A stretch of DNA of 54,767 nt from an uncultured Desulfobacterales bacterium (GTDB taxonomy: Bacteria > Desulfobacterota > Desulfobacteria > Desulfobacterales > C00003060), in NCBI GenBank assembly GCA_964429315.1, contig CAYSBQ010000001.1, forward strand, positions 1-54,767. Reading direction: 5' to 3'. The notes beneath the pieces were generated by a model. The model ran no database searches. It was given only the letters and a program-made list of their open reading frames with translations, and was not told where the DNA came from. Position numbers and translations under genes: made by a program. Positions within the stretch are counted from its first letter, which is position 1. Every line of letters begins with the position of its first letter. Positions 11,404 through 54,016 of this stretch are shown here, in pieces.

Positions 11404-11415
11404 GATTGACCTGAA

Positions 11416-11443: not shown

Positions 11444-11458
11444 GTTTGGAGTGATAGT

Positions 11459-34256: not shown

Positions 34257-35387
34257 GTGGGCGCAAAGGGGCAGACGGGACAAAGCAGATTCGCTCTGAC
34301 ATCATCCGCGCAAGGCGCGGTGGTTACTCGGCCGACGACTGGGCAGATTCGGAATGCTCAACGGGCTGAGGTTTCTCGTTTTAACGATCCGAGGGTAGCC
34401 CTTCCGAATCCAACGGCGGATGCACCTTTCGATCGGACCAGGCCGCAGCCGTACGAATCGAAGGTCAAGGGCCTTGGTCTGGCGCCGAATGTACCACGTC
34501 ATTTCTGGCAGCTCATAAAAGGTGACGCTGGAGCCGGAAGTTCTATCTTTCGGCGGATCAGCCTTTTTCAGCAGCTCGCTGTTTCGGGCGCTCGAGTTGC
34601 TTCGACTCCTTATAGCAAGGCGATCCAAGTCGCTACGATGAGGTCGACAGATCAACGACCGCGCTATTTCCAGGTCAGCCTGTTTTCGACCGGTCGAGTT
34701 ATCGAGACGGATGTACCGATTGGTCCAGTTCCGGATGATGAGATTCTAAGATTCTCTCCGGGTGTACCCCAAAGCTTTGTTCCTCTCGCGGGATTCGATG
34801 TAGCTCGAGCTGTCCCTCTTGTTTCGACGACGAAGTTCCGGATTATGGTTCATGACGAATCCGGACAGAGATTCTTCGACGTCGATGTTGTTGGAACGAG
34901 GAGTCTGAACCTTTATGCGTGGGGTGTAACTGTTTTCGCCCTCATAAAGGAAGAGGGCTACGAGATCGATCGACAAGGCGCCGATCAAGAGCAGTTCAAT
35001 GGAATGCTCGACCAGGCCATTGCCGGCGCGCGAATCATTCCTATTCGTTCAAACTTCACGCAAAACGTGAATCAGAGAACGGTATCGATTTTTATTCCGG
35101 CGGAGATTGCGATCTCCATTGTCCCGATCCCCCCTGGCGCGAAGACTGTACAGGCGTTTTGCGCTGATGGGTCCGCAGGATTCGCTAGGTTCTCCGTTTT
35201 ATTTGTAGACATTGACCCAATCAACAGCGGCGTCTCCGGCGCTATCGGGACGCTGGGGGTGATCGATCCTGAGCCAGGCACCGGGACATCTGAGATTTAT
35301 AGGATCCCCGACTCGAATGCGATATTCTTGGTTCGACTCGGAGTAGACCCAGCTATCTTCACGTTCGTGTTCGAGGAGACGCCATGA
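34257..35387 (+). CDS. Capsid-candidate paralogue 1 (376 aa, GTG start)
   Basis: Homologous over its full length to the next two genes. Shared blocks: FNDPRV.LPNP...PFDRT.P, GDAGAG.S.(F/Y)RR, R(Y/F)(F/W).(V/I)S, (I/V)MV(H/F)DESGQRF(F/Y)DVDV.G.RS...YAWGV, GAR(I/V).PI, NRT(V/I), (V/I)PIPPGA..VQ and a C-terminal F(V/I)FE. GGAGA lies 7 nt upstream of the GTG. Confidence 0.75.
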   Translation: MGAKGQTGQSRFALTSSAQGAVVTRPTTGQIRNAQRAEVSRFNDPRVALPNPTADAPFDRTRPQPYESKVKGLGLAPNVPRHFWQLIKGDAGAGSSIFRRISLFQQLAVSGARVASTPYSKAIQVATMRSTDQRPRYFQVSLFSTGRVIETDVPIGPVPDDEILRFSPGVPQSFVPLAGFDVARAVPLVSTTKFRIMVHDESGQRFFDVDVVGTRSLNLYAWGVTVFALIKEEGYEIDRQGADQEQFNGMLDQAIAGARIIPIRSNFTQNVNQRTVSIFIPAEIAISIVPIPPGAKTVQAFCADGSAGFARFSVLFVDIDPINSGVSGAIGTLGVIDPEPGTGTSEIYRIPDSNAIFLVRLGVDPAIFTFVFEETP

Positions 35388-36463
35388 CCAGAAAAAGAAT
35401 CGGTACTGGCGATATAAGGGATATGCAGCGTGCGGATGTTCAGCGCTTCAATCGCAACGGCGTCTACCTTCCAAATCCAACAACGTCGCCAACGCTAGAT
35501 CGCCATAAGCCGATACCAAGCGACGAAAAAGCTCGAGCGTTTGGACTTGAGCCGGTTTCTCCGAAGCGTCTGTTCGATCTACCTGCCGGAGACGCTGGCG
35601 CGGGTCAATCTGTCTATCGTCGCATCCATGCTTTTTATGGGCAAGGGATAACCCAGGCCGCGCGGACGAACTACACAAAGGCGCTGGCGATCATCACAAA
35701 CAGGTCTTCGACCCAAACTGCGAGATACTTCCACGTATCGATCTACGGATTCGGAGTACGAAGAACTGGGAACGGCGTCGTACCATTCAATCCTCTGAGT
35801 ATTGCGGAAGCGCAAGATCGTCAATTTGAACAGATCTACCTAGACGACGTCGCTCAGACTCCGATTACGCCAAGATTCGTACCTTCGGTTCTTACCGCTC
35901 AAGCTCGAGTGATGGTCCACGATGAATCTGGCCAAAGGTTCTACGATGTTGACGTTATCGGTAGTAGATCTTTCAGCGTGTACGCCTGGGGCGTATCTGT
36001 ATTCTTACTCGTAAAGCCCGATGGGTACGAGGTAGATGCTCAGAACCCCGAAGGAAGTGAGCCGATACTCTCTGACGTCGGTGTAGAAGACGATGTTGTC
36101 GGCGCCCGTGTGCTTCCGATTTTCACCAACCTTACAGAAAATCAGCAGAACAGGACGATAACAATCACGATAGACCCTGCAGTATCTGTCGCTCGAAGAA
36201 TCATTCCGATTCCGCCAGGCGCGAGACGCGTTCAAATCTTCTCCAATGAGCCCGACCCAGGTGCGGTTCCATGGGAGATGGATTTTTGGACAGGGCGAGC
36301 GGCGCTTGGAACAAGGCCCGATCTTGGAATCATTGACTGGGAGCCCGGCCAAGCGAAGACATCGATGGTGGAAATTCCAAATGCATCCGCCATCGCCATC
36401 CGCCCATTAGATCCAGGAGCCAGGGCAACAGGCTTCTCACTCGTATTTGAGGTCGAACCATGA
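35384..36463 (+). CDS. Capsid-candidate paralogue 2 (359 aa)
   Basis: Shares the same conserved blocks. ATGA overlap with paralogue 1, GAGGAG SD, N-terminus MTRKRIGTG. Confidence 0.8.
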   Translation: MTRKRIGTGDIRDMQRADVQRFNRNGVYLPNPTTSPTLDRHKPIPSDEKARAFGLEPVSPKRLFDLPAGDAGAGQSVYRRIHAFYGQGITQAARTNYTKALAIITNRSSTQTARYFHVSIYGFGVRRTGNGVVPFNPLSIAEAQDRQFEQIYLDDVAQTPITPRFVPSVLTAQARVMVHDESGQRFYDVDVIGSRSFSVYAWGVSVFLLVKPDGYEVDAQNPEGSEPILSDVGVEDDVVGARVLPIFTNLTENQQNRTITITIDPAVSVARRIIPIPPGARRVQIFSNEPDPGAVPWEMDFWTGRAALGTRPDLGIIDWEPGQAKTSMVEIPNASAIAIRPLDPGARATGFSLVFEVEP

Positions 36464-37707
36464 CCAGAAAAAGAAATCTCAAGAACAGGATTCATACGCC
36501 GCCTGATGTTCAGCAGCAGCATGCAGATCACCTGGCCAATATTGCGAACATGCTTTCACAGGAGCAGACCGGCAATCATGGAGTGATGTACCCGAACGGA
36601 AGGCCGAACATCAGTCAGGTGAGGGATCTCGAGCGGGCGATGCAGCAGCCGTTTAACGATCCACGCGTCATGCTGCCCAATCCATCGGCAAGCGCACCTT
36701 TCGATCGCACCGAACCGCTCGACCGTGTTGCAAAGAATGAGGCGTTCGGATTCCAGGTCCAGCCTGATCGGATTATCGATCTACCGCCCGGCGATGCCGG
36801 CGCTGGGCAATCCGTCTATCGTAGAACGCACATCTTCGCGCGTCTCAATGCGTCGACTGCTCCAGATGACCCTGTTGCAGGAAATCCATTCGACAAGGCT
36901 ATCGGAATGGCGACCTACAGGTCGAGCGATTGCCGCCCTCGATTTTGGCATATCTCATTCTTCGGAATCGGTGTTCAGCGAGTCGCTAACAATGTACCGC
37001 TAAGCCCTCTCACAAACAATGAGATCCTCAGTCAGCAACTAGACCCTGTCACCAACAACGTATTGCCTACTGGAAGATTCATTCCTTCAATCTCGCAGAT
37101 GAAGGGGCGAATCATGGTCTTCGATGAGTCGGGGCAGAGGTTCTACGACGTCGACGTTTTAGGTAATCGGAGTCTCGATATCTACGCCTGGGGTGTAACC
37201 GCATTCATTCTTGCGCCTGGAAACAACTATGATGGTCAGCCAGATCAATCCGCCTATGAGGTAAACGCTCAAAATGGAGGAACCCCAATCCCTCAAACAC
37301 AGCTCGAGGGATTGGTTGAAGACTCTTTGATCGGAGTACGCATTGTCCCGATCGTAATTAACAGTACTCAGAATACTGAAAACAGAACGATCACGGTTGT
37401 GACGCCCGGCGGCGCCGATCCAGGGCCAACGAGAGTCCCGATCCCTCCAGGCACCCTGAGGGTTCAGGTTCTATGCCATGACGGAGCGACGGTTGCGGCG
37501 ACATACCGCCTTGAATTCGACGCTGGAGATGACGGCACATTTCTGGGAAGGAGTGATCTTGGTTTGCTCGAGTTCAATACGGGTCAAGCAAGAACTGATC
37601 TAATGCTCGTGCCCAATTGCTCACAGATTATTATAAATCCACCAGTCGCGCCTCCGCTTGTAGGCACTGTTGGATGGTCATTCATCTTTGTCGTGGAGGC
37701 GCAGTAA
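36460..37707 (+). CDS. Capsid-candidate paralogue 3 (415 aa)
   Basis: Shares the same conserved blocks, with a longer N-terminal arm and insertions. ATGA overlap with paralogue 2. N-terminus MTRKRNLKNR. Confidence 0.8.
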   Translation: MTRKRNLKNRIHTPPDVQQQHADHLANIANMLSQEQTGNHGVMYPNGRPNISQVRDLERAMQQPFNDPRVMLPNPSASAPFDRTEPLDRVAKNEAFGFQVQPDRIIDLPPGDAGAGQSVYRRTHIFARLNASTAPDDPVAGNPFDKAIGMATYRSSDCRPRFWHISFFGIGVQRVANNVPLSPLTNNEILSQQLDPVTNNVLPTGRFIPSISQMKGRIMVFDESGQRFYDVDVLGNRSLDIYAWGVTAFILAPGNNYDGQPDQSAYEVNAQNGGTPIPQTQLEGLVEDSLIGVRIVPIVINSTQNTENRTITVVTPGGADPGPTRVPIPPGTLRVQVLCHDGATVAATYRLEFDAGDDGTFLGRSDLGLLEFNTGQARTDLMLVPNCSQIIINPPVAPPLVGTVGWSFIFVVEAQ

Positions 37708-38190: not shown

Positions 38191-40050
38191 ATGGCATCGA
38201 GAAGAACCCGCTCAAAAAAATCAAAGTCCAATCGAGGTGCTCGTCGCTACGGCGATTGTCGCCCACACGCGCCATGCGCAGAGTCAGAAGGCGGAGCCCG
38301 AAAGTACGGATCTATCGGCCATGTCGTTTCCGGATTTGACCATTATGGCTATCCAATCGTTCGGAACATGAGGCTGCCCAAGCCGTTCTCGATTCAGGAT
38401 GGTCGCAAATATGGCGCTGCCCAAAGCATGATTCAACCGATGCGCCTCGTCGCCGTCGGACCCAATGGGGTTCCGCCAGTGCCTAAGCCGGGGATCGCCA
38501 AGGTCGGAGTGTTCAAGCTCAAGCCTTCACCATCGGTGCCTGGCGCTCCGGATAGCCTCCCGTCTCAATACAAGTTCTGCGTGCAAAAAGGCGAGCACGG
38601 ATATTTTTATCGGTTCCGAAACGCGAAGACCTCTTTGCACGGCGCCGAGGCTGAGGTGCTGGGATGTGAGCCCGACGAGAACGGGATGGCCATCTGCACG
38701 GTCAAGATGCCTGGGAGTGATCGGCCTTATAAGGCTCCGCTTTGCGAGGATGCTGGATCTGACAAAGAGCCCGTCCCCGTCGACTGCTGCGTCAAGCTTC
38801 TTGGTGACGAGTCTGGCCAGATCATCTGCCCGGGATCGTCTTACGACCTGCTTGTCGTGAATGTCGTGACGACCTCACCGGTAGGCGGCGTCTTGGTTGC
38901 ATCCGTTTCTCACCCGGACATCCCAGGCGGCGGTGTCCGTTTGCCGATTTGCGAATCCATCGATGAGACTCCGGAAGATCGCCCTTGTTGTATCGAGGAA
39001 AAGACCGGGCTCATTGTGTGTCCCGAGGGTGTCGACTTCCCGCTGTCCGGTAAAAAGATTCCTCTCGAGTTCCTTGTGTTCGCAACAGAGGCAGACGGAA
39101 GCCGAGTTGCGCGCCTGAAGTGCGGAGACATCATGGCGCTCGACCCGTCTCTGCGCGTATCGGATGCAACGCTCGATTCAATGTGGATGATTTGCGAAGA
39201 GTTGGGTGGATACATCTTCCCAATTTGCGATCGCCGGACGCCTGTGCCTCCGCCAAAAATTCGATTCCCTGACGCGCCTCCTCCACCAAAGGTTCCGGAT
39301 ATCTGTTGCTACGACCCTCAGACCGGAACTCTCGTGTGCGAGGGTACGCAATACCACGGCCTCCCTGTTGAGGTCGTGACTGAATCCACAATCGGCGGTA
39401 AGTTGATCGTTTCCGTTGCGAGCGACAAGCTTCCCGGTGGCGGTGCCCGACTTCCAATTTGCCCGCCACCTGCAGACATTCCTCGATTGCCCCCAGCCGA
39501 TTGCTGCGTCATCGAGTCATCTGCTGGCCTTGTCCTTCTGTGCGACCCGAAAGACCACCCTTGGAACAACAAGGACGTCAGCCAATTTGGGCAATGCATA
39601 GATACTCCAAACGGCCGGATGTGCGTGCTGAAGTGGACGGATGAATACGGAGAGCACTTGCTCGAGGTTCCAGCCTGCCCACCTCCGCCCCCTGCTCGAA
39701 CCCCACCGGGTGGAGAGGTCCCTCCTCCGCCTGCAGTCCGACCCGATCCAGTACCGCGTCTTCCACCACCTTCGCGCCCGCCTGCTGATGCATGCGACAC
39801 GGTTGAGGGTAAGCGGTGTCGAGCGCTTTGGGATGAGATGATCTCCAAGCCTGCGAAGATGACCAAGTGCGATAAGAAGTGGACCGAGCTTCTCAAGAAA
39901 GTTCGTGAGCAACGCACTGGACCTGGGCGTCGAGCAAGCTCGATGGATAACCACAAATCGAAGGCTCGCAAATACGGAATGGGCATCCCACCCGAGAGCC
40001 GAAGGTATGCTCGATTCCCGGGGCTTCGGGGTGGAAGGAATACGATCTAA
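38191..40050 (+). CDS. Cys/Pro-rich modular structural protein (619 aa) with a basic N-terminus
   Basis: Trimmed to the ATG 38191 (MASRRTRSKKSKSNRGARRYG). Four modules open with CC-x(6-8)-G-x-(I/L)-(I/V/L)-C and close with (L/F/V)P(I/A)C, for example CCVKLLGDESGQIIC...GGGVRLPIC and CCYDPQTGTLVC...GGGARLPIC. Also has poly-Pro tracts and four [AG]R[RK]YG motifs. Confidence 0.75.
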   Translation: MASRRTRSKKSKSNRGARRYGDCRPHAPCAESEGGARKYGSIGHVVSGFDHYGYPIVRNMRLPKPFSIQDGRKYGAAQSMIQPMRLVAVGPNGVPPVPKPGIAKVGVFKLKPSPSVPGAPDSLPSQYKFCVQKGEHGYFYRFRNAKTSLHGAEAEVLGCEPDENGMAICTVKMPGSDRPYKAPLCEDAGSDKEPVPVDCCVKLLGDESGQIICPGSSYDLLVVNVVTTSPVGGVLVASVSHPDIPGGGVRLPICESIDETPEDRPCCIEEKTGLIVCPEGVDFPLSGKKIPLEFLVFATEADGSRVARLKCGDIMALDPSLRVSDATLDSMWMICEELGGYIFPICDRRTPVPPPKIRFPDAPPPPKVPDICCYDPQTGTLVCEGTQYHGLPVEVVTESTIGGKLIVSVASDKLPGGGARLPICPPPADIPRLPPADCCVIESSAGLVLLCDPKDHPWNNKDVSQFGQCIDTPNGRMCVLKWTDEYGEHLLEVPACPPPPPARTPPGGEVPPPPAVRPDPVPRLPPPSRPPADACDTVEGKRCRALWDEMISKPAKMTKCDKKWTELLKKVREQRTGPGRRASSMDNHKSKARKYGMGIPPESRRYARFPGLRGGRNTI

Positions 40051-40877
40051 TGACATGGAGAATTAATCGTCGCTATTCGAAGACTGGCGGTCGCGGGTAC
40101 GGAGAGGATTCCGCACCTGCCGCTAGGCCTGAGCCTCCGCGCCCAGTGCCATCCGCCCGTCCACCTGGGAGACCGACTAATCCAGGTCCAACCCAAGGCT
40201 TCATTCCGAACCGTGGGAATACCCAGGGGTTCATTCCGATGCCTGGGCCGACCCTGAAGTTCATTCCCAAGGGTGACAACACTCCGTTCCACCCCCCTGG
40301 CCCAGGTATCGGAATCCGCCCAGGACCACCGCCTGCGCTAGGTCGACCTGGGATTCTCCCTCGGGACCATGGCTCATGGAAGAACGACAGCTGCTTCTCT
40401 CCTGGTAGTCGAGGATGGAAGCCGGACATCATGTCCATCGGTGACGCGCATACGTGCCCAGGCGAGAAGGGTCCGCAAAGCCCTTTTCGTCCACCGAACA
40501 CGAGCGGTGATTCCTATGGCTACAACACAAAGCTGTTCCGTGATGAGGACAGCGTTGGCGAGGCGCTTAATTATATCGGATATAGATCACCCGATGGAAA
40601 TGCGATGCTGCGAGATTTTCAGAGGCACTGGAACGCAGTCATTTCTGCGCTAGCGCTTTCGCCAATGCGTTTCGCAAACATGATGTTCAAGATTCTGCCT
40701 GAGGGCAATCTGCAGGTCGACGGTGATATCGGACCTAATGTCCTCAACGCTCTCGAGGCCGCATCCATCAACCAGAAGTTTTCGAACCTTCGCTGGCCGG
40801 ACATTGTCGAGATCACCACGACTTCCGATAATGGATACGGACGAACGCGACTCTACAACGCTGCTGAGGGAATGTGA
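40050..40877 (+). CDS. Basic-leader protein with a Pro/Gly-rich region and a PG_binding-like C-terminal domain
   Basis: MTWRINRRYSKTGGRGYG, short repeats TQGFIPNRGN/TQGFIPMPGP/TLKFIPKGDN, then PPNTSGDSYGYNTKLF...ALNYIGY...FQRHWN...VDGDIGPNVLNALE. TAATG overlap with the previous gene. Confidence 0.7.
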   Translation: MTWRINRRYSKTGGRGYGEDSAPAARPEPPRPVPSARPPGRPTNPGPTQGFIPNRGNTQGFIPMPGPTLKFIPKGDNTPFHPPGPGIGIRPGPPPALGRPGILPRDHGSWKNDSCFSPGSRGWKPDIMSIGDAHTCPGEKGPQSPFRPPNTSGDSYGYNTKLFRDEDSVGEALNYIGYRSPDGNAMLRDFQRHWNAVISALALSPMRFANMMFKILPEGNLQVDGDIGPNVLNALEAASINQKFSNLRWPDIVEITTTSDNGYGRTRLYNAAEGM

Positions 40878-41476
40878 TGTCGAGCCCACCGAACTTGTCA
40901 AAAGACCCTGATGGGTACAACCGAAAAATGTTCCGCAGCGAGCGAGCGGTGCGACGCGGGTTCATGATGATTGGGTACCCAGTAAACCCAGGGGTACACA
41001 GGGTGCCGAAGGAGACTGTCCTTCAGTTTCAAAAGGACTACAACAAGTGCTCCGATAGATTCGGCCAATGGGGAAAGATTGTAGAGAATAGTTCTCTCGA
41101 TATCCCGAGCCTAAACGCGCTCGAGCACGCCATACGATGGTCGAAGAAGCGTGAGAACAAAGAGGGGATCCCCACAGCTCGGTCCTGGCAATCGCTTTGC
41201 CACGCCGCGCCCGGAGATTCATGCGGCGGAGAGAGGCGAATCATCGCTTCTCGAATTGAGGAGCCTGCGGCATACGAGACGAAATACATCGAGGTAGCCC
41301 CTCAGGGCACCGCAAAACTTCGGGACACCGAGACCGATCTAGCTCTCAGAGCCGAAGTCGTCGGCTTTGAGAGGGACGGCAATGTCGTATTCGCCATTGT
41401 GAAAATCCCACCCCAGGCTGATCTTCCTGGTGGCCGCGAAGCTCCGTTCCGTTGCCCTTGCGTATTGGGACGATAG
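40874..41476 (+). CDS. PG_binding-like domain protein (200 aa), paralogous to the C-terminus of 40050..40877
   Basis: PPNLSKDPDGYNRKMF...GFMMIGY...FQKDYN...IPSLNALEHAIRW aligns with the neighbouring genes. ATGA overlap. Confidence 0.7.
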   Translation: MMSSPPNLSKDPDGYNRKMFRSERAVRRGFMMIGYPVNPGVHRVPKETVLQFQKDYNKCSDRFGQWGKIVENSSLDIPSLNALEHAIRWSKKRENKEGIPTARSWQSLCHAAPGDSCGGERRIIASRIEEPAAYETKYIEVAPQGTAKLRDTETDLALRAEVVGFERDGNVVFAIVKIPPQADLPGGREAPFRCPCVLGR

Positions 41477-41485
41477 GAGATTTAG

Positions 41486-41980
41486 ATGACCAGAAGATAC
41501 GGAAGACACGGCAGAAAGATGAACGGCGGGCGCACCTATGCGGCTCCCCCAGATGGTCGCGCCGCGTTACTTCGTCTTCTCGATCAATTCCATGCGTCCT
41601 ACCTTATCTATCGAGAGGGGCACTGGACCGTAAAGGGAAAAGGTTACTATGGTAATCATCTTCTTTTGGAGAGGGTCTATAGTGAAACCGAGAAGGAGAT
41701 TGACGATCTCGCTGAGATGATCGTTGGATCATTCGGACCGGGCATCATCGGAAGCAGGGACGATAGCTCTTCGAGGTGGGCGGAGGATTTCAGGAATCCA
41801 GTCGACCCAATGAGAGGCGCTCTGAAAGCAGCCCGAGTTGTCCGAGCTAGTATCGATGACTCGTATAGATCCCTCAAGGAGTCCGGAGAGATGACCACTG
41901 GGTGGGATGACTTACTGATGTCGTTGGCCCAGGAGAAAGACAAACATCTGTACCTGCTTCAGCAGGCCACCGCGGAATAG
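41486..41980 (+). CDS. Dps-like (ferritin superfamily) protein with a basic N-terminal leader
   Basis: LLRLLDQFHASYLIYREGHWTVKGKGYYGNHLLLERVYSETEKEIDDLAEMI matches the Dps signature (L..Y.k...HW.V.G..F..LH..fee.Y.e....D.iAErI). It includes both His and the D/E of the ferroxidase site. EKDKHLYLL lies near the C-terminus. The leader is MTRRYGRHGRKMNGGR. Confidence 0.7.
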   Translation: MTRRYGRHGRKMNGGRTYAAPPDGRAALLRLLDQFHASYLIYREGHWTVKGKGYYGNHLLLERVYSETEKEIDDLAEMIVGSFGPGIIGSRDDSSSRWAEDFRNPVDPMRGALKAARVVRASIDDSYRSLKESGEMTTGWDDLLMSLAQEKDKHLYLLQQATAE

Positions 41981-41989
41981 GAAAAGACC

Positions 41990-42535
41990 ATGACCAGAAG
42001 AAACGGAAGACACGGAACTAGATACAATCGCATGGGGGGACCAGTCAGGGGAGGCGCATCCAGAGGTCTGGCAGCCCCAGCCCCCAATGTCCCGCCTAAT
42101 CTAAGTGGCAATCCTGCGGGCTACAATAAAGTTCGCTTCCCAAGCACCAAAAGTGTTATCTCGGAGCTTCAGGGGCTCGGGTACACGGCGATCTACAATC
42201 CCAAGGCTGCCTTCGTGAGATTTCAGCAGGATTATAATATCGTCCATAAGTATAGCCCCAAGCATGCTCCAGGTACCCTGGTACCCGATGGAGTTCCTGG
42301 GATAAACACTCTGAACGGTATGGACTGGGCGACTCGCATGGTCAAGACCATGCCTAAGAGCTGGATTTACTACGTCAAAAAATTCCGCTCGATGGGAACC
42401 GACAAGCCGAGCAGCCCAGTGCCTCTTTTCCCTAAGCCTAAGCCTAGCGGTCCAACGCGTCCGGGAAAGCCTAAGCCTAAGCCTGGTGCGAGTAAACCGA
42501 TAGGTCGTCGCCGCAGCCGTCGCCGTAGCCGGTGA
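41990..42535 (+). CDS. Basic-leader protein with a PG_binding-like domain and an Arg-rich tail
   Basis: MTRRNGRHGTRYNRMGG, then PPNLSGNPAGYNKVRF...LQGLGY...FQQDYN...VPGINTLNGMDWATRM, then a KPKP-rich tail ending GRRRSRRRSR. Confidence 0.7.
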   Translation: MTRRNGRHGTRYNRMGGPVRGGASRGLAAPAPNVPPNLSGNPAGYNKVRFPSTKSVISELQGLGYTAIYNPKAAFVRFQQDYNIVHKYSPKHAPGTLVPDGVPGINTLNGMDWATRMVKTMPKSWIYYVKKFRSMGTDKPSSPVPLFPKPKPSGPTRPGKPKPKPGASKPIGRRRSRRRSR

Positions 42536-42564: not shown

Positions 42565-43263
42565 ATGACACATCGATTCGGAAGAGCAACAAGAGTTTTT
42601 AATGCCATGGGTCCTGCTGGCGTAGCCGGCATGGAGCTTGCGCCCTCGGCGCGTGCAGAGGCTGAGTCTCATCCGGCCGTCACCTACCAATCTGGATATG
42701 GATCGATGATGGCGTCGGGGGCATCTCCAAATGCTCCCATGAGAGTGGGCGCAATGGAGTACACGATGCCTCCGAATCGGATGCTCGAACCTCATCGACA
42801 AGGTGAGCAGAGTCGAATGCTGTGGCATCAGACTGGGCGTAGATTCGGGAATCCACCACCTGGGTGGATTGGTGCTGGCGGGGTTGCCCAGATCCCCCAC
42901 CCGAATATGGGTATGAGGCCTGCCCCCGACCGCTCCTTTGGTCCCGGTCTAAGCGCAGGCCAAGGCGGCGTCCAGTCATTTCAAGGCGGAGCTGGACCCA
43001 TGGCGGTTCAAACCTACGGAAGCCTAGGGTACGCGAGTATGGGCGACGGGAGCATGGACATGGCCGTGCGTCAGGGTCGTAGATTCTCAAAGGTTTCGGA
43101 TTACGAAAACACGGTTACTTGCAACTGGTGGTGCTCGAAACACCCGGATTCCCAGTACTGCAAGCCGGGCGGTCTATGTACGGATAGCTATTTCCTTCCC
43201 AGCCCGACTAAGCGTCGAATCAGAAGCAAGAGCCCGGCCAGGAAAAGAAGGAGAAAAAGATGA
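42565..43263 (+). CDS. Basic-leader Gly/Met/Pro-rich protein with an Arg-rich tail (232 aa)
   Basis: MTHRFGRATRVFNAMG at the N-terminus, a C-terminal Cys cluster (CNWWCSKHPDSQYCKPGGLC) and the tail KRRIRSKSPARKRRRKR. Confidence 0.65.
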   Translation: MTHRFGRATRVFNAMGPAGVAGMELAPSARAEAESHPAVTYQSGYGSMMASGASPNAPMRVGAMEYTMPPNRMLEPHRQGEQSRMLWHQTGRRFGNPPPGWIGAGGVAQIPHPNMGMRPAPDRSFGPGLSAGQGGVQSFQGGAGPMAVQTYGSLGYASMGDGSMDMAVRQGRRFSKVSDYENTVTCNWWCSKHPDSQYCKPGGLCTDSYFLPSPTKRRIRSKSPARKRRRKR

Positions 43264-43535: not shown

Positions 43536-43922
43536 ATGGCCAAGACAGATCTAAGACCCGCCGCCCTCGCCGCCGGCATCTTCGTCATCGGCGGAGTCGT
43601 GCTTTTTTCGAGAAAGAAAAGAAAGGCATGCCTTGAGCTTCCTGACATCTGGTCAGAAGAAGGTCCAATGCACATGACGCAAGGGTCTCAAGATGAGGCT
43701 ATTGAGTTGACCCGATACAAGATTAGGGAGTACGTTCTTTCTGCGAAGTCGTACACTCGCTCCGATATCGTGATGGCTGTCGCCGATGGGCTAAGAGAAT
43801 GCAAGTGGGAGAATCTCGAGACCGACCAACAAAAACAAGTGTGGGAAGGCATCGAACAGATCGTAAAAAGCGAGATTCAGGCGTATAATCAGAGTCCAGA
43901 TGCCTGGATGGCATCCTTCTGA
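43536..43922 (+). CDS. GG-helix/basic N-terminal module protein (128 aa)
   Basis: MAKTDLRPAALAAGIFVIGGVVLFSRKKRK. Starts 3 nt after the previous stop. Confidence 0.7.
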   Translation: MAKTDLRPAALAAGIFVIGGVVLFSRKKRKACLELPDIWSEEGPMHMTQGSQDEAIELTRYKIREYVLSAKSYTRSDIVMAVADGLRECKWENLETDQQKQVWEGIEQIVKSEIQAYNQSPDAWMASF

Positions 43923-43936
43923 TTCGGGAATAGATA

Positions 43937-44728
43937 ATGGCTATACAGCAGGGAAAAGTTCTAATCCTAGCGGGCGCGGGAGCCCTGCTGTTCATTTCAG
44001 CTGGGAAAAAGAAGAAGCGGAAAAAAACTTCTTCGAGTGCGGCTCCTGAACCTGCAGAGGATATGGATAGCACCGAAGGCCCCGCGTTTGAACCGGACGA
44101 AGTAGCGGGCGAGGCGGACGGCGCTGAGCCTGAGGCTCCACCCAAAATCGAGACAGCCATCAGCAAGTACATGTCCCCCGACGGCAAGGCGCAACTCGGC
44201 GCGTTTTACCAGATACGCCCTGGTGACACGCCGCTCGAGATTTGCCGCGAAGCTTTATTTGGATCGAGAGAGCCGGTTACGAGCCAGGTCATGCGGCAGG
44301 CTGCCAAAGACCTTCTTGTCAGAATCGACTGCGGCCCCTGGAACCAAGCTGTATATGGAGTATCTCTGAGCAAGCTGACCCCTGGTCACGCTGCAATCGA
44401 TGAGTACTGGACGCAGCAAGGCGTCTCTTTGTACCCGGTTTATTCGGACAATTCCGATCGAATGTCAAAGGGACTCTCTGCGAGCGGGGCGAGCGGAGAG
44501 AGCTTTGCTTTGATTTGGATTCCAATGATCAACCTCGATAAGTTCGACATGGAAGGTATTGTGTCGACAGAAGGTATGTATCACCCTGACACTCCGAATG
44601 GACTAGGCGGGAGCATGATCGATCCACCCCTAGAAATTCTGAGCCTCGGATTCGATGATGTGTCCGAAAAGACAGTCGGATGCGACCTGCCAGAGGGCGA
44701 CTTCAGAAGAAATCTGATCGCTAACTGA
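43937..44728 (+). CDS. GG-helix/poly-Lys module protein (263 aa), possible LysM-like segment
   Basis: MAIQQGKVLILAGAGALLFISAGKKKKRKK. FYQIRPGDTPLEICREAL loosely resembles the LysM start (Y.V..GDTL..IA), but this is a weak match. Confidence 0.7.
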   Translation: MAIQQGKVLILAGAGALLFISAGKKKKRKKTSSSAAPEPAEDMDSTEGPAFEPDEVAGEADGAEPEAPPKIETAISKYMSPDGKAQLGAFYQIRPGDTPLEICREALFGSREPVTSQVMRQAAKDLLVRIDCGPWNQAVYGVSLSKLTPGHAAIDEYWTQQGVSLYPVYSDNSDRMSKGLSASGASGESFALIWIPMINLDKFDMEGIVSTEGMYHPDTPNGLGGSMIDPPLEILSLGFDDVSEKTVGCDLPEGDFRRNLIAN

Positions 44729-44847
44729 TGGCTAAAAGATGCCGCCCTTCGCGCTGCAACTCACATCGTACAATACCAGTCCCCGACCCCCAATCTCCCC
44801 TCTCTTCTAACCGTCGCAACGCACAAGAAAACGGCACTTCCTAAGCG

Positions 44848-44876
44848 TTGAATCATGCCTTGCAAAATGGTAAAGT
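44848..44876 (+). promoter_or_regulatory. Candidate sigma70-type promoter in the 169-nt gap inside the late block
   Basis: TTGAAT (44848-44853), a 17-nt spacer, then TAAAGT (44871-44876), 21 nt upstream of the ATG at 44898. Confidence 0.4.
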
Positions 44877-44897
44877 TTAAGGCGGAAGAAGAACCCT

Positions 44898-45383
44898 ATG
44901 TCAAAGAAGAAGTACGATACAAGCGAACCAATTCTCGTCATTGTTAGGCGCGGTCGAAAGGGTCGTGGATTCACGGTCGCCCCAGTGGAGGACGCGTCGA
45001 ATCCGGCAATGTGCGGGACAATTGAAGAGCTTGGCGAAGTGCTTGAGGAAATGCTGAACGATGAGTATCAGTCCCGAGTGGACCTCGCCGCAATGTTGTC
45101 AGCCGGAATGGAAGGCTCAGAATCCCCAAGAGGCCGAGCGCCCGAAGAGGGTGAGCCAGAATACGACGATGGCGATGAGGATGAGGACGAAGACGAGGCT
45201 GAAGGCGGCGAAGAAGACGGCGGACTATTCGAAGGCGTCGCAGGCGCTGCAGATCCAGCAGACCAGCTCCTCATCAATGTATTTTCCTGGGCCGCGAAAA
45301 AAGGCCAATCAATGAGCAGCAAGCCTCGCGCTCCACGAGCCCGAACCAGAAGGCGACGCCCTTCTGGTAAAAAGAGATCATAA
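44898..45383 (+). CDS. Acidic-core protein with an Arg-rich tail (161 aa), no hydrophobic module
   Basis: EGEPEYDDGDEDEDEDEAEGGEEDGG in the centre and PRAPRARTRRRRPSGKKRS at the C-terminus. Confidence 0.65.
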   Translation: MSKKKYDTSEPILVIVRRGRKGRGFTVAPVEDASNPAMCGTIEELGEVLEEMLNDEYQSRVDLAAMLSAGMEGSESPRGRAPEEGEPEYDDGDEDEDEDEAEGGEEDGGLFEGVAGAADPADQLLINVFSWAAKKGQSMSSKPRAPRARTRRRRPSGKKRS

Positions 45384-46103
45384 ATGGACCCCGTCACCCT
45401 TGCAGTCCTCGCCCTAGGCAGCGCCTTTCTCCTCAAAGGGAAGAAAGGTCGCGGCAGTAGGTCCGCGCCCAGCGGCAGTAGGTCCGCGCCCAGCGGCGGA
45501 TGGGGTGTAAAGGGTGACGAAGACCGCCTTCACTGGCTCAATGAGATTCGCTCAATGTCTCACTGGTACACCCAAAAATTTGGGTCAATGCCATACCTAG
45601 CCGACTACCTCACGGTCGTTGGCTATATCGAAGCGAACTTCAACCCGGCCTCGCGGAATCCGGAATACAAAACCAACCCCGCGAACGCGGCTAGAGGGCT
45701 CGGCGGAATGCGTCCTGATACGGCGTTCAAAGAAAAATACGGGACCGAGTTCATGGCCCCATACCCGGACGCCCTCCTGAATCCTCGATGGGCTTTCGTC
45801 ATGGCGGTCCATCACATCTGGTACGCTTGTGCTCGCGTCGATGAGCTGCAGACTGGAGTGATTGATTGGGCTGCAGTAAGACGTTGGTGGGGGAGGCCCA
45901 CCACTGTCCACGATTTCAATTTCGACAATCCGTATTCATCCGGAAACCTCGAGCGATTCGTGGATAAATTGCACGAGTGCAATAAGAATTACGGCACCAA
46001 TATCGATCCAGATTTCGTATGGGAGAAGGTTTCCGGATGGCGAAATTATCCTGGTATAGAAGTGATGATTGAGTCATTCGGTCTCAAAGGCGTTTACGCA
46101 TAG
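45384..46103 (+). CDS. Membrane-anchored lytic transglycosylase (SLT-like) candidate
   Basis: MDPVTLAVLALGSAFLLKGKKGRG, then GYIEANFNP (catalytic Glu context, where E-S-x-F-N-P is expected) and ANAARGLGGMRP (where GA.GLMQ is expected), followed by PYPDALLNP. Confidence 0.55.
   Translation: MDPVTLAVLALGSAFLLKGKKGRGSRSAPSGSRSAPSGGWGVKGDEDRLHWLNEIRSMSHWYTQKFGSMPYLADYLTVVGYIEANFNPASRNPEYKTNPANAARGLGGMRPDTAFKEKYGTEFMAPYPDALLNPRWAFVMAVHHIWYACARVDELQTGVIDWAAVRRWWGRPTTVHDFNFDNPYSSGNLERFVDKLHECNKNYGTNIDPDFVWEKVSGWRNYPGIEVMIESFGLKGVYA
45453..45494 (+). repeat. Perfect in-frame 21-nt tandem duplication
   Basis: GGCAGTAGGTCCGCGCCCAGC at 45453-45473 is repeated at 45474-45494. Encodes GSRSAPS GSRSAPS just after the membrane module. 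Confidence 0.9.
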
Positions 46104-46109
46104 GTAAAT

Positions 46110-46805
46110 ATGGCAGCTCCAGCAATCCCCCTATTGGCCGCGGCAGGAGCCGCTCTTCTTCTTTCCGGTGGCAAGAAAAAGAAGAAGAGCGGCCCGAGGA
46201 CTGGCCAGAAATGTGATGACTCCCTGAGTCCGCCTAGTGGATTCACCTGCGACGATGGGTTGCTGAAAGAGGAATCGATCGAAGAAGGGGATCTAGATAG
46301 CGATGCAGATCTCTCCAAGGAGGATTCCGGGGACTTCGAAACGTACCAAGAGGATGTCGGGCTTTCTGATGGTGAGGAGCACGGCGATCTAGAAGAGCCG
46401 GAAGACCCCGCGCCTGACCCGGTGAAGACTTGCGAGGAGTTCATGAGCGCAGTCCATGTGGACTCGACGGATGACGGCGAGTTACCCATCAACGCTGTAG
46501 CTGTCGAGGAGTCGGTGCTGCCGGCAATGAGGGCGAACGCGGCGAGCATTGCTGAGTCAATTGGGACTCCGCTCGACCACGAGTCGGTAAGTCCAGTATT
46601 GGTTGTCACGGGTCTCAAGTCCCTCATTCCAGTGTGCGAATGGAAGTACGACGTGGACGACGGATTCACCTATAACAACGGAACCGCAATAATTTCGGAT
46701 GAGGCGAAGGACGTCATATACGGACTTATCGAGTTGTCCGTAAGCGTGATCGACGAGATCAACAACCCCGTGACTAACACCGCAACACTGCAGCCGGAAG
46801 GATAG
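46110..46805 (+). CDS. GG-helix/poly-Lys module protein with an acidic ectodomain (231 aa)
   Basis: MAAPAIPLLAAAGAALLLSGGKKKKKSG, followed by an Asp/Glu-rich region. Confidence 0.75.
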   Translation: MAAPAIPLLAAAGAALLLSGGKKKKKSGPRTGQKCDDSLSPPSGFTCDDGLLKEESIEEGDLDSDADLSKEDSGDFETYQEDVGLSDGEEHGDLEEPEDPAPDPVKTCEEFMSAVHVDSTDDGELPINAVAVEESVLPAMRANAASIAESIGTPLDHESVSPVLVVTGLKSLIPVCEWKYDVDDGFTYNNGTAIISDEAKDVIYGLIELSVSVIDEINNPVTNTATLQPEG

Positions 46806-46808
46806 AAT

Positions 46809-46994
46809 ATGGCGAAAAAGAAAAAAGAGGACGACGATGCGTTCAACAAAATTTTGTGGGTTGCCGGGGCCGCTGGCGTGACAGCGTTTGCCATGTTCTA
46901 CGTGAACAAGCATCTCAACGAAAAGGAAGAGCTTAATCGATTGCGGAGCAATGGGCACCAGCCTCAGCTTAGCGGTGGGGACGGCGAAGAATGA
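46809..46994 (+). CDS. Small membrane protein, basic cluster before the helix (61 aa)
   Basis: MAKKKKEDDDAFNKILWVAGAAGVTAFAMFYV. The order of the poly-Lys and the hydrophobic helix is inverted relative to its neighbours. Confidence 0.6.
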   Translation: MAKKKKEDDDAFNKILWVAGAAGVTAFAMFYVNKHLNEKEELNRLRSNGHQPQLSGGDGEE

Positions 46995-47503
46995 AAGATC
47001 TGGCAGAAATGGAGGTATGGGGGCTTGAGCAGTTCTCCCAGCAATGGGAGCGCTCGTTAGATCTACGCGACATCTTGTCGAAGCTTCCTGGCCAACTGGT
47101 TTTGAAATCAGGACTATCCGCTCGGCGGAATAAGCTTGTTGAGGGGTGGGACCAGCTCGAGTCCCCCGGCCTTGACGGCATCGTGTCTAATGAGTCCGCG
47201 ATCGCTCTGAAGAGATGGATCCATGAGGCGGAGATCTTCATCGCTCACATCATTCAAATCGGAAAGCAAGACAAACAGCAAGCGTTCGGCCGCGCGTTTG
47301 CAGGGACAGATGATGTCATTCAGTTCGAAACAGTCGAATCTATTGGCGAAGTTAATTTCGTTTCAGACGAATGGTCCTTTCCGTGGGCGGTAAAACGACA
47401 GTCGAATCGAGCGAAGAGCTTCGATAAAGAAAAGCTCTTTAAATACGGAACGCTCGGCGCCCTCGGCCTTATCGCTGTCGTCACATACATGGACGAGGAA
47501 TAA
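46991..47503 (+). CDS. Tail-anchored protein (170 aa)
   Basis: ATGA overlap with the previous gene. The only hydrophobic helix is C-terminal (YGTLGALGLIAVVTYM-DEE). Confidence 0.65.
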   Translation: MKDLAEMEVWGLEQFSQQWERSLDLRDILSKLPGQLVLKSGLSARRNKLVEGWDQLESPGLDGIVSNESAIALKRWIHEAEIFIAHIIQIGKQDKQQAFGRAFAGTDDVIQFETVESIGEVNFVSDEWSFPWAVKRQSNRAKSFDKEKLFKYGTLGALGLIAVVTYMDEE

Positions 47504-47505
47504 CG

Positions 47506-47949
47506 ATGAGCTTCCTACCAATACTCGTATTAGGCGGCGCCTATGTCGTTCTCTCCGGAAGGAAAAAGAGGAAGAGACGACCTAGCGGTGCAAAGGCGCT
47601 AACAGCCTCGGGTCGAGGCGAAGTCTTCAATGGGGGTGATCCTCCAGACGTCATCACCAACGCCGTTGGGATAAGATTCTCCGTTTCGTTCCCCGAAATA
47701 GCTGGCACGGGGTATGGATGGAAACTCTCCGCATCTCCGCCAGACAACTCCGTCACCCTAGTAAGCACAGAGTTTGACTCGATACCAAGCGACGACGGCA
47801 TCGTTGGCGGGCATTCGGGGAACCGAGTCTTCGTTTTCGAAGGCGCGAAAAAAGGCTCAGGCTCGCTGGTGTTCCACCTTCAGGCCCCATGGAAAGATGG
47901 GAAAGAGCCACCGGCAGAAATAGTCGAGATTCAAACGGAAATCTCGTAG
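47506..47949 (+). CDS. Membrane-anchored chagasin-like (I42-type) cysteine-protease inhibitor candidate
   Basis: MSFLPILVLGGAYVVLSGRKKRKRR, then AGTGYGW (where NPTTGY.W is expected), about 33 aa later VGGHSG (for G.GG), and about 27 aa later QAPW (for RPW). The order and spacing match the three chagasin loops in a ~110-aa beta domain. Confidence 0.55.
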   Translation: MSFLPILVLGGAYVVLSGRKKRKRRPSGAKALTASGRGEVFNGGDPPDVITNAVGIRFSVSFPEIAGTGYGWKLSASPPDNSVTLVSTEFDSIPSDDGIVGGHSGNRVFVFEGAKKGSGSLVFHLQAPWKDGKEPPAEIVEIQTEIS

Positions 47950-47967
47950 AATACACAAGGCAGAACC

Positions 47968-48546
47968 ATGGCAAACAAAGTACTACCACTACTCGTAGCC
48001 GGCGGAGCCGCGCTTCTTTTCCTTCCCAAAAAGAAGAAGACGGAGAGCACCTCTGGAAAAAAATCGAACGGAGAAGTCGGGGGCGATTCAAATGGAGATA
48101 TCTCCAAGACCGGAACGCTTTTCGGATGGAATTATCGAGTACGAAAGGCGAAGACCGTAGAAGGCTTCTCCGTTCAATACTTCGGTGAGGTTCAAGCACC
48201 AGATTCCAAGACTTGGGTGAAGGCTCATCAAGACGCTCGAACCGATCCAGAAGCCGCCCGATTCCTCGCTATGGAAGCGATCGCCACCCGCGTCGCAGCC
48301 GCCGACACGCCAGAGGACAATCTTGTGTTCAACTCCGGTTCGATGTCCGACTGGAACTGGAGAGTTATGCGAACCGTACCAATGGAAGGGTTCGGTGTCG
48401 CATACTTCGGAGAGATGCAGGCTCCCGATTCGCAACAATGGACTCGAGTCCATAATGACGCCCGGGTTGATCCCGAAGCCGCTCGCCTGCTCGCCCTAGA
48501 GGCGATCGCAATGAAGCTCGAAGAACTGGCTAACGCCGGCAACTAG
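47968..48546 (+). CDS. GG-helix/poly-Lys module protein with an internally duplicated ~65-aa domain
   Basis: MANKVLPLLVAGGAALLFLPKKKKT. The repeats are WNYRVRKAKTVEGFSVQYFGEVQAPDSKTWVKAHQDARTDPEAARFLAMEAIA and WNWRVMRTVPMEGFGVAYFGEMQAPDSQQWTRVHNDARVDPEAARLLALEAIA. Confidence 0.75.
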   Translation: MANKVLPLLVAGGAALLFLPKKKKTESTSGKKSNGEVGGDSNGDISKTGTLFGWNYRVRKAKTVEGFSVQYFGEVQAPDSKTWVKAHQDARTDPEAARFLAMEAIATRVAAADTPEDNLVFNSGSMSDWNWRVMRTVPMEGFGVAYFGEMQAPDSQQWTRVHNDARVDPEAARLLALEAIAMKLEELANAGN

Positions 48547-48562
48547 CCGGCCAGCCCACTTG

Positions 48563-49714
48563 ATGGGAGTACCGGTGGCCAGCGAAAACCTCCAGACGAT
48601 CATCGTCTCAAAAGAGATTGCGAGAACGCGCCTAGCTGCAGAAAAGCTGGCGCGTCCTTACGCGCGCGGTCCTCTTTATCCGACCGAAAAAAAGTCGAGC
48701 TGGCGCTTTCTGCAAAAGCCGCCGAGCGACTTTGTCCGCAATTCTTTTCGGGCCGTACCCATTCCTACCCAGGAGGGGATCGTCCTCGTCTATGGCAAGC
48801 TCAAGAGGCAGAGCAACCCCTCGGACCAGCGCTGGCTCCAATTCAGAGATGGAGACAGACGCGAGACGGTGATGGCCGAGTGGGACTTCTGGATGACCTG
48901 GAGGCCGAATGTAGCCAAGGCTAAGGATGCGGATGGGCTCCGAAAGCTCATCGCCTCTGCCGACAAGAGGGAGGTTCGAAGCGTGTTGGTGCGAGGTTTA
49001 ATCGATCAGGACATTGCTGAAAGAGCAAGGGTTTTGAAGATTACCAGGATGCCGAAATCTGTTGAGGCGGACGAGAGGATAGTAGATCTCCTGAGGCGCG
49101 GCAGAATGGGTAATCCAGGTCAGCCCCCGAAGGTCAACAAAGGCAGCTCACCGAAATCGGCTAAGAAAAAAGCCAGAACGAGGACTACTAAGCACATCGT
49201 TCTTCGCTCTCCTAAAACCATGCCAGATCCAGGGCCATGCTCATGGCTTGGGTCGATGGTCGAATGGGCATGGGTGATGCCAAGAGGGGAAACGGCTAAG
49301 AAAATCGACGAGGATGGCAATGCGCTTTGGACACCTAACTCCGAATGGATGTTCATGTGGGCCCCTAAGTACAAGGCAGTTGTATCGATCAGAAAGCCTC
49401 GGAACATGTACAGGCTTGCCAAGGTTTCTAGGCATGGTGGCGCGGCAAAAATGTTCGAAACATTCATGGCTCGCCCGGCTGAAAATTCATTCGAGATTAG
49501 CGTCCCTGACATTCCTATCCATCACGTTGGCCAAAAGGCTGCAGCGATTGTGTATAGGTCTGATAAGTGGTCGCCGAAGAGGCTCGAATCTGACTACATT
49601 CACAAGTTCGGGAAGGGCGTGCAACTTTACTGCGGTCCAAGCATTGAGCATCCCGACGTTTTCATTTGCTTCGGTGGCAAGCTTACGCTGACAAAGCGCG
49701 GGCTCGTCTGGTAG
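48563..49714 (+). CDS. Hypothetical soluble basic protein (383 aa)
   Basis: The track start 48560 is a TTG, so the adjacent ATG 48563 is used. No hydrophobic module. Basic patch NPGQPPKVNKGSSPKSAKKKARTRTTKH. No family recognised. Confidence 0.65.
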   Translation: MGVPVASENLQTIIVSKEIARTRLAAEKLARPYARGPLYPTEKKSSWRFLQKPPSDFVRNSFRAVPIPTQEGIVLVYGKLKRQSNPSDQRWLQFRDGDRRETVMAEWDFWMTWRPNVAKAKDADGLRKLIASADKREVRSVLVRGLIDQDIAERARVLKITRMPKSVEADERIVDLLRRGRMGNPGQPPKVNKGSSPKSAKKKARTRTTKHIVLRSPKTMPDPGPCSWLGSMVEWAWVMPRGETAKKIDEDGNALWTPNSEWMFMWAPKYKAVVSIRKPRNMYRLAKVSRHGGAAKMFETFMARPAENSFEISVPDIPIHHVGQKAAAIVYRSDKWSPKRLESDYIHKFGKGVQLYCGPSIEHPDVFICFGGKLTLTKRGLVW

Positions 49715-49729
49715 AATCAGGATATCGTT

Positions 49730-50404: not shown

Positions 50405-50407
50405 AGA

Positions 50408-51157: not shown

Positions 51158-51579
51158 ACAAGGACGACATCGTACCGTTCGCCCTTTTGGGCGCAGGCCT
51201 ATTCCTTTTGGGAAAGGCTGCCAAAAAAGGTCCAAGAAAACTCAAGGACCGAACGGGGGAGGCGTGTGATCCAAAAGATAACGCTCCATATGGGTACGAG
51301 TGCGGACAAGTCGTCGGCGGATGGGAGCTGATGGAGGAGAAAGGTAAATTCCTCGGGTTCGGTCCATATAACAATCGAGACGGTGTCGATACGGCTCTCT
51401 CGAGACTTGGATTTTCCGGCGGGAACCTAAAGGGGTTCCAGATGTATATGTCTTTGATCTCCGAGTGGGATTTACGTAAAGATGGCCAGCTCGACAGCGA
51501 AACGATCGTGGCTCTAGAAGAAGCCGAAGGCCTACTGAACAGGGACGAGTGGGTTCCGCCAAGGGGTAATCAGCCATGA
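51154..51579 (+). CDS. GG-helix/basic module protein with a PG_binding-like segment (141 aa)
   Basis: MNKDDIVPFALLGAGLFLLGKAAKKGPRK, then ALSRLGFSGGNLKGFQMYMSLISEWDLRKDGQLDSETIVALEEA. ATGA overlap. Confidence 0.7.
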   Translation: MNKDDIVPFALLGAGLFLLGKAAKKGPRKLKDRTGEACDPKDNAPYGYECGQVVGGWELMEEKGKFLGFGPYNNRDGVDTALSRLGFSGGNLKGFQMYMSLISEWDLRKDGQLDSETIVALEEAEGLLNRDEWVPPRGNQP

Positions 51580-52996: not shown

Positions 52997-53005
52997 GAGT
53001 CCAAA

Positions 53006-53473: not shown

Positions 53474-53479
53474 TCCGTC

Positions 53480-54013: not shown

Positions 54014-54016
54014 GTC

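Follow-up and report, generated by a model that had tools for sequence, protein, structure and literature searches.

Why should a virus encode a Dps mini-ferritin, and why does that protein begin with the same short basic peptide as the proteins encoded beside it? These questions are raised by the gene at positions 41486-41980 of a stretch of 54,767 nucleotides (nt) from contig CAYSBQ010000001.1, deposited as part of an uncultured Desulfobacterales bacterium (the whole stretch is referred to here as the window). A reading made previously from the letters of the window alone (the sequence-only reading) had placed a Dps-like ferritin with a basic leader at this position, inside what it called a structural module, and had pointed to a virion-packaged component. 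The answer that we favour, with a probability of about one half, is that the leader-tagged Dps is co-assembled with the viral genome as a virion or DNA-protecting component.

The gene at 41486-41980 encodes a Dps mini-ferritin

The gene and its parts are as follows.

41475-41479, forward strand: Shine-Dalgarno-like AGGAG, 6 nt 5' of the Dps ATG, read from the sequence
41486-41980, forward strand: Dps-like open reading frame (ORF) of 164 amino acids (aa) including the leader, with an ATG start
41486-41560, forward strand: basic N-terminal leader, residues 1-25, delimited by its charge and its disorder in the structural model
41486-41533, forward strand: 16-residue motif of the Dps leader that is common to other genes, from motif comparison
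41561-41977, forward strand: Dps four-helix-bundle core, residues 26-164, from the alignment to 1o9r and the alignment of homologues
41621-41623, 41624-41626, 41657-41659, 41669-41671, 41702-41704 and 41714-41716, forward strand: codons of the Dps ferroxidase residues H46, W47, H58, E62, D73 and E77, respectively

Residues 26-159 of the ORF match the Pfam family Ferritin (PF00210) with 32.0 bits against a gathering cut-off of 24.5, and PHROG 3636 ("DNA binding protein") matches the ORF over its full length (1.4e-11). A phmmer search of the PDB with the ORF returned almost exclusively Dps-family proteins, and a profile of 24 Dps homologues returned 49 PDB sequences, essentially all from the Dps family, with S. 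aureus Dps (2d5k) as the top match (2.2e-13, full length). The identity of the ORF to Dps proteins of solved structure is just 14-24%. The AlphaFold2 (AF2) model of the monomer, with a predicted local distance difference test score (pLDDT) of 88.8 and a predicted template modelling score (pTM) of 0.82, is a four-helix bundle with helices at residues 24-48, 54-83, 95-102, 108-133 and 138-163, of which 95-102 is the BC helix typical of Dps. The top 50 Foldseek matches of this model in the PDB were all Dps, with a probability of 1.0 and template modelling (TM) scores of 0.59-0.71. An identity as ferritin or bacterioferritin was rejected, as all significant PDB and Foldseek matches were Dps or Dps-like.

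For the ferroxidase site, HMMER paired H46, H58, E62, D73 and E77 with H40, H52, D56, D67 and E71 of A. tumefaciens Dps (1o9r), which we take to be the ferroxidase site of that protein. In the alignment of the 24 homologues, H46, H58, D73 and E77 were invariant, W47 was present in at least 90%, and position 62 was E or Q. The hallmarks on which the sequence-only reading had based its assignment, namely the HW..G motif, a second His and D...E, are therefore present and aligned to the A. tumefaciens ligands. Two of the checks that it had proposed, profile and structure searches for a Dps/ferritin four-helix bundle and an inspection of ferroxidase-residue conservation, both came out in its favour, and the core sequence and the 25-residue basic extension that it had quoted are exactly as described. 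The protein also bears the signatures of a phage clade of Dps (YYGNHLL, GxDDLLM and YLLQQ). These results show that the ORF encodes a Dps mini-ferritin with an intact inter-subunit ferroxidase site, and we infer from the conserved residues that it would function as a mini-ferritin, probably as a dodecamer.

A start at Met12 was rejected, as the Shine-Dalgarno-like sequence precedes M1 and the orthologues lack this Met, so that M1 is the sole start available in them. Gaps of 9 nt separate the gene from both of its neighbours, and since these gaps are short, Dps is probably co-transcribed with them.

A basic leader is common to Dps and neighbouring genes

The leader of Dps has a net charge of +6 and an isoelectric point (pI) of 11.7, and the core has a net charge of -6 and a pI of 5.2. 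Residues 1-18 are disordered in the AF2 model, in which the leader passes directly into helix A at residue 24. A profile derived from 19 instances reads M1 T2 R3 R4 [YNF]5 G6 R7 x G9 [RK]10 [RK]11 [YF]12 N13 R14 x G16. This leader opens four consecutive genes of the window, those starting at 41486, 41990, 42565 and 43260, which differ in their bodies, as well as 15 genes in related loci. The three window genes that follow Dps are listed below.

41990-42535, forward strand: downstream neighbour of Dps, 181 aa, pI 11.6, with the leader MTRRNGRHGTRYNRMGG, a PG_binding-like middle and an Arg-rich C-tail
42565-43263, forward strand: leader-bearing basic protein of 232 aa (MTHRFGRATRVFNAMG...KRRRKR), of a family that is fused to Dps in protein P0135
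43260-43532, forward strand: small protein of 90 aa with both ends basic, leader MTIKKGRLGRKFNRAAM...RRRSRR

All three proteins have pI values of 10.5-11.6 and Arg-rich C-tails. Genes 41486 and 41990 agree in 25 of their first 27 nt and in 8 of their first 9 residues, which bears out the common start sequence that had been noted for Dps and this neighbour. A regular expression for the leader matched three times in the window (42565 narrowly misses), three times in the related locus L089 and four times in L090, and in the window and these syntenic loci the matches fell only at gene starts of the leader cluster. The same expression gave no matches in 200 shuffles of the window and none in the six-frame translation of 1.47 Mb of control phage loci.

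In the Dps orthologue of locus L131, which is 82% identical, the first 11 residues carry just the two substitutions Y5N and R10K, and the codon of R7 has changed synonymously from AGA to AGG. The leader in locus L007 likewise shows the synonymous changes AGA to CGA, ACC to ACT and GGA to GGG, and the leaders of the orthologues keep the pattern MTRRYGR[HY]G[RK]K. Because the orthologues swap codons synonymously while keeping the residues, the leader is constrained at the protein level.

Three other explanations of the leader were considered and rejected. For cleavage of the adenain type, the sequence KMNGG|R fits (M/I/L)xGG|x, and this site is not conserved in the orthologues P0001-P0005. For a Tat or Sec signal peptide, TRRY is followed by a Gly/Arg-rich stretch with no hydrophobic h-region. 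For mimicry of the N-arm of a capsid protein, [RK][FY]N[RD]xG was found in 10 of 106 capsid-like homologues, which is too weak.

The Dps core is joined to cluster-typical peptides in related loci

Synteny with positions 23985-46800 of the window is seen in two loci, L090 and L089, the latter on a 193-kb scaffold. They have in common with it the helicase, the primase-polymerase, a 212-aa protein, three capsid-like paralogues, a 154-aa protein, a Cys/Pro-rich protein of about 600 aa, a PG_binding-like pair, leader genes and membrane-anchor genes; Dps is missing from both L089 and L090. In L131, Dps is shifted downstream by one gene relative to the window, and a leader stump of 17 codons (VTHRFGRSTRLFRARG, then a stop codon) is found just 5' of it, at about 9950-10000. 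Since the gene order of L131 differs from that of the window, shuffling of the cassettes seems to take place at the leaders. Also in L131, an ORF that bears the leader but had not been called (MTRRNGTQGRRYNRS...) lies between a 199-aa gene and Dps.

The related loci also differ in what the Dps core is joined to. In L007, the core is placed between the leader and the C-tail (KLSRQGAPDTRLKHGLLKR) of a family of small, doubly basic proteins that includes the product of window gene 43260; the orthologue of this gene in L089 encodes a 73-aa protein in which a Pro/Gly-rich linker stands between the same leader and tail. In protein P0135 (571 aa; L100, 16558-18273), the Dps core is followed by an Arg/Gly-rich linker, a middle domain and a member of the 42565-43263 family, and the protein ends in KRFKSIKKKVRSFLR. 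Its core is 59% identical to the window Dps, and its last region is 63% identical to the product of 42565-43263 over residues 37-187.

In distant relatives, the C-terminus of Dps has the form (NP)..KLK[TSA][KR]LLR, for example KLKTKLLR. This C-tag is also carried by the next five ORFs after Dps in L004 (10001-13568) and by the next two in L008 (1634-3065), and these ORFs have no evident similarity to one another. A Pfam search with the tag-bearing proteins of L004 and L008 gave just one sub-threshold GNAT match, and a profile of the C-terminal tags gave no matches in the PDB. The C-tag was found neither in the window, the window Dps included, nor in 80 IMG/VR loci with Dps relatives, and the leader was likewise absent from those 80 loci.

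Across this virus group, almost every Dps core is linked in cis to a basic peptide or protein typical of the cluster, in four architectures. These comparisons show that Dps is a mobile accessory cassette within the leader-gene cluster, that its core was repeatedly and independently joined to cluster-typical peptides or proteins, and that the terminal peptides are re-used in a modular manner.

The Dps cluster is flanked by capsid-like paralogues and membrane-anchored proteins

The further features around the cluster are listed below.

34257-37707, forward strand: three tandem paralogues (34257-35387, 35384-36463 and 36460-37707; 376, 359 and 415 aa), probable jelly-roll capsid proteins
38191-40050, forward strand: Cys/Pro-rich repeat protein of 619 aa; its N-terminus is strongly basic, and R[RK]YG motifs recur at each of its ends
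40050-41476, forward strand: two genes upstream of Dps (40050-40877 and 40877-41476), with a PG_binding-like domain in common with 41990
43536-54682, forward strand: at least 14 small proteins with one hydrophobic helix and then a poly-Lys/Arg run, for example MAKSAAPLLLLGGAALLLVSSKKKKKSS

For the three tandem paralogues, 106 homologues were found, with conserved basic N-termini (MTRKR, MSKKR or MTKRR). Two of the three window paralogues begin with MTRKR, and the C-termini of the three are of the F.FVFEVEP type. In the AF2 model of 35384-36463 (pLDDT 79, pTM 0.51), an N-terminal helix adjoins an otherwise all-beta fold, and Foldseek matched the model to the capsid proteins of PR772/PRD1 (P3), STIV, FLiP and PBCV-1 and to vaccinia D13, with probabilities of 0.92-0.99. 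These results suggest that the paralogues are probably jelly-roll capsid proteins, a double jelly roll being the probable form. At their N-termini they carry a looser version of the leader.

The protein of 38191-40050 is conserved in L089, L090 and L131, contains repeats of the form CC..L.C......L.V.VVT....GG.L.ASV......GGG.RLPIC, and may form a spike or a vertex. A domain of some 100 aa, spread over 40497-42409 on the forward strand, forms the C-terminus of the 40050-40877 product, the N-terminus of the 40877-41476 product and the middle of the 41990-42535 product. In alignment its pattern, LGY...FQ..xN...VDG..G..TLNALE, is like that of PG_binding_1. The sole PDB match of the domain was 4xxt, a cell-wall hydrolase, at a weak E value of 0.081, and Pfam returned PG_binding_3 at an E value of 0.14, so that the label PG_binding-like, taken from the sequence-only reading, is a tentative one. 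The flanking of Dps by basic-leader proteins of this type, as claimed there, applies on the downstream side, where 41990 has the leader; on the upstream side 40877-41476 lacks it, and 40050-40877 has a looser basic N-terminus (MTWRINRRY).

For the run of small anchored proteins, matching hydrophobic/poly-Lys anchors adjoin the Dps homologues in L006, L007 and L008. This run suggests a membrane-containing virion, or else a mass targeting of proteins to the membrane. Within it, 47506-47949 on the forward strand encodes a cysteine-peptidase inhibitor of the chagasin family (Pfam I42, 3e-13) with a hydrophobic anchor and poly-Lys.

On the reverse strand, 31322-32695 holds a conserved ORF of 457 aa with a degenerate P-loop (GPPGRGR), a long charged region resembling a coiled coil and a poly-Asp run, whose product may be scaffold-like. 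A Walker-A scan of the window returned just the AAA protein at 21073-23367. Other genes of the window encode a helicase, a primase-polymerase, RecT and an AAA ATPase. Enzymes of the lysis type are encoded at 3635-4543 (M23 peptidase) and 10339-11541 (Amidase_2 and PG_binding_1), and a homologue of the anti-Thoeris protein Tad6 is encoded at 15009-15710 on the reverse strand (PF25188, 5.8e-34). Because of the helicase, primase-polymerase, RecT, AAA ATPase, lysins and Tad6, the element is, by its predicted gene content, a virus of a peptidoglycan-bearing bacterium.

The capsid-like family had no match in INPHARED, GTDB genomes or IMG/VR, so that neither a cultured relative nor a firm host was found for the virus. 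The family is present in 40 sediment metagenome loci, and two of the NCBI labels of metagenome-assembled genomes that contain it name Planctomycetota, which is a weak hint to the host. Taken together, the window probably represents an uncharacterised lineage that is tail-less, rich in membrane proteins and built on jelly-roll capsids, and the capsomers of this virus group, which may be an uncatalogued one, may be heteromeric.

Comparison with known Dps proteins and packaging systems

Cellular Dps proteins, such as those of E. coli with its Lys-rich N-tail, M. smegmatis with its C-tail and Deinococcus, resemble the window Dps in the four-helix bundle with a BC helix, in the H/H/D/E inter-subunit ferroxidase ligands with a neighbouring Trp, and in an acidic core with a disordered basic tail, which is N- or C-terminal depending on the member (PMC13319912). 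The DNA binding of cellular Dps has been ascribed to these flexible basic tails (PMC13319912). In contrast to the cellular proteins, the window Dps belongs to the phage clade with its own signatures, and its tail is a defined 16-residue motif common to co-encoded proteins of different bodies. The phage clade is large and includes many multidomain fusions. Clustered at 50% identity, it has 3352 clusters with an E-value limit of 1e-3 and 495 with a limit of 1e-30; 84 relatives were found on IMG/VR contigs of 7-619 kb. The reported phage Dps proteins (PHROG 3636, those of Lactobacillus phages and "Gratiaviridae", and gp346 of phage G) are like the window protein in being virus-encoded Dps domains. 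They differ in being found in tailed phages and in having no reported terminal peptide in common. For phage G, the DNA-binding, ferritin-like gp346 has been detected in particles (PMC12484599).

The internal proteins of T4 offer a parallel for the leader, in that a short N-terminal peptide is common to otherwise unrelated co-encoded proteins; by this peptide they are targeted to the inside of the head along with the DNA (PMC9026906). In contrast to T4, there is no sequence similarity, and the window capsid is probably of the jelly-roll type and not HK97-fold. Neither a prohead or maturation protease, in the Pfam and PHROG scans of the window, nor a conserved cleavage site after the leader was found.

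The C-tags of the distant relatives resemble the C-terminus of the P22 scaffolding protein (...YRKLKAKLKGIR-COOH), where Y292, R293 and K296 contact the N-arm of the coat protein (PMC9965877). The tags YRKLKARLLR and VRKLKAKLLR match these three residues, and the tags of the form [YFV][RK]KLK[TAS][KR]LLR are likewise placed at the extreme C-terminus. Conversely, the likeness lies in a short peptide of low complexity, the PDB profile search was empty, and the window Dps is without the tag.

The core proteins of adenovirus (VII, V and Mu) and protein J of phiX174 are small, very basic, encoded in late regions, and condense the genome in a jelly-roll capsid. The products of 41990, 42565 and 43260, very basic and with Arg-rich termini, resemble them in character. 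They differ in that no homology is seen, and no protease of the adenain type was found in the window.

Possible roles of the leader-tagged Dps

The reading that we favour would proceed as follows. A Dps of the phage clade would have been picked up by the jelly-roll lineage as an accessory cassette and, on entry, its core would have been joined to the standard disordered basic N-terminal peptide of that lineage. The leader would act at the protein level as an anchor or address, and the 12 leaders of a cage would tie Dps electrostatically to the viral DNA, to the inner face of the particle, or to both. Dps co-assembled with the genome in this manner could condense the DNA and, by removing Fe2+ and H2O2, spare it the damage that these would cause. 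The dodecamer, the DNA binding, the incorporation into virions and the protective role are all properties that we infer. Virion packaging or DNA condensation by Dps is plausible, and the virion reading becomes more plausible because the Dps core is nearly always joined to a cluster-typical basic element and because the probable capsid paralogues bear the leader too. A wider proposal, which is tentative, would be that interchangeable terminal peptides, the N-terminal leader here and the C-terminal KLKTKLLR in sister lineages, load diverse proteins, here a 12-mer cage that would bind DNA and detoxify iron, into a jelly-roll, membrane-containing particle, with new cargo gained by insertion of a cassette behind an existing leader.

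Several results weigh against the favoured reading. The Foldseek matches of 35384-36463 to capsid proteins have TM-scores of just 0.2-0.28. The neighbours of Dps gave no Pfam or PHROG match to a known structural family, and among the roughly 45 ORFs of the window the same scans found no capsid, portal, terminase, packaging ATPase or maturation protease. The structural module of the sequence-only reading accordingly stands only in so far as the three upstream paralogues are jelly-roll proteins by Foldseek, at these low scores. In addition, the second half of the leader of the window Dps (M-N-G-G-R) deviates from the consensus, and most phage Dps homologues in IMG/VR are without such a peptide. 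We know of no established precedent among jelly-roll phages for a 9-nm dodecamer inside a DNA-filled capsid. Furthermore, the Dps genes of Lactobacillus phages and "Gratiaviridae" have been read as intracellular helpers against oxidative stress (PMC8008677).

If the window Dps were such a helper, it would remain unpackaged and would lower Fe2+/peroxide stress or coat replicating viral DNA, and its leader would be an ordinary DNA-binding tail, common to neighbouring DNA-binding proteins by chance. The wide spread of phage Dps (3352 clusters, and 84 loci in IMG/VR, of which many belong to jumbo phages and have no tag), the published precedent, and the fact that Dps proteins usually bind DNA through basic tails (PMC13319912) are all consistent with this role. 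We nevertheless regard it as rather unlikely here: the leader opens proteins of very different bodies, including the capsid-like paralogues and the PG_binding-like proteins; the gene lies in a tightly packed cluster of the late type, away from the replication genes; and the fusions to cluster proteins, or to the cluster C-tag in relatives, exceed what a generic DNA-binding tail would need.

The codons of the leaders raise a different doubt. In the leaders of 35384, 36460, 38191, 40050, 41486, 41990, 42565 and 43260, AGA accounts for 19 of 31 Arg codons (61%), compared to 64 of 398 (16%) in the gene bodies (Fisher p=9e-8), a bias that also counts against the favoured reading; because of it, part of the similarity of the leaders may come from recent copying or from selection for an A-rich 5' end. 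It is improbable that the leader is mainly a nucleotide-level element with little function as a peptide, that is, an A-rich 5' ramp for translation initiation of late genes and/or homology for cassette shuffling. The AGA bias, the near identity of the first 27 nt of 41486 and 41990, and the stump and altered gene order of L131, which indicate recombination at leaders, are in keeping with that view, whereas the orthologues swap AGA for CGA or AGG and R for K and retain the residue pattern, Gly6, Gly9, [YF]12 and Asn13 are conserved although an A-rich ramp does not predict them, and the C-terminal peptide of the sister lineages cannot affect initiation.

A further alternative is a nanocompartment of the encapsulin kind, in which Dps would be the cargo of a dedicated shell distinct from the virion. 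Such systems classically pair ferritin-like cargo with short targeting peptides at a terminus, and here too a protein of the ferritin superfamily and several co-encoded proteins of different bodies have one terminal peptide in common. The cargo-loading peptides of encapsulins are usually C-terminal and rich in Gly, Ser and Leu, unlike the window leader, which is N-terminal and rich in Arg, Gly and Tyr. In addition, the protein is a Dps and not Flp or IMEF, no gene for an HK97-fold or encapsulin shell was found in the neighbouring ORFs by Pfam or PHROG, the shell-like neighbours resemble jelly-roll capsid proteins, and an element that also has a helicase, a primase-polymerase, RecT, lysins and an anti-Thoeris protein is a virus. 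We therefore consider a dedicated shell very improbable. The comparison with encapsulin cargo in the sequence-only reading holds only as an analogy, in the logic of addressing and not in membership of that system.

Implications for the virus group

As an enzyme, this Dps is a new but ordinary addition to the phage clade, and virus-encoded Dps proteins are already known (PMC8008677; PMC12484599). The unusual parts are the modular system of terminal peptides and the uncatalogued virus group that carries it. This group is sizeable, with more than 100 capsid-like homologues and contigs of up to 221 kb, and has no entry in current viral databases.

Should the leader serve as an address, a compact peptide code, itself transferable, would exist by which proteins are loaded into a non-HK97 particle or onto its genome. 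Such loading codes are known for encapsulins and for the heads of T4 and P22, and to our knowledge none has been described for jelly-roll viruses. The wider proposal of interchangeable peptides, if true, would place this address system beside encapsulin cargo loading and engineered P22 scaffold fusions, as their counterpart in nature. As natural variants exist with the leader only, the tail only, both, a fusion, or no Dps, the system is directly testable. If Dps is borne by the virion, the virus would carry its own cage that condenses DNA and suppresses Fenton chemistry, which could matter for its persistence in sediments that are rich in iron and alternate between oxic and anoxic states.

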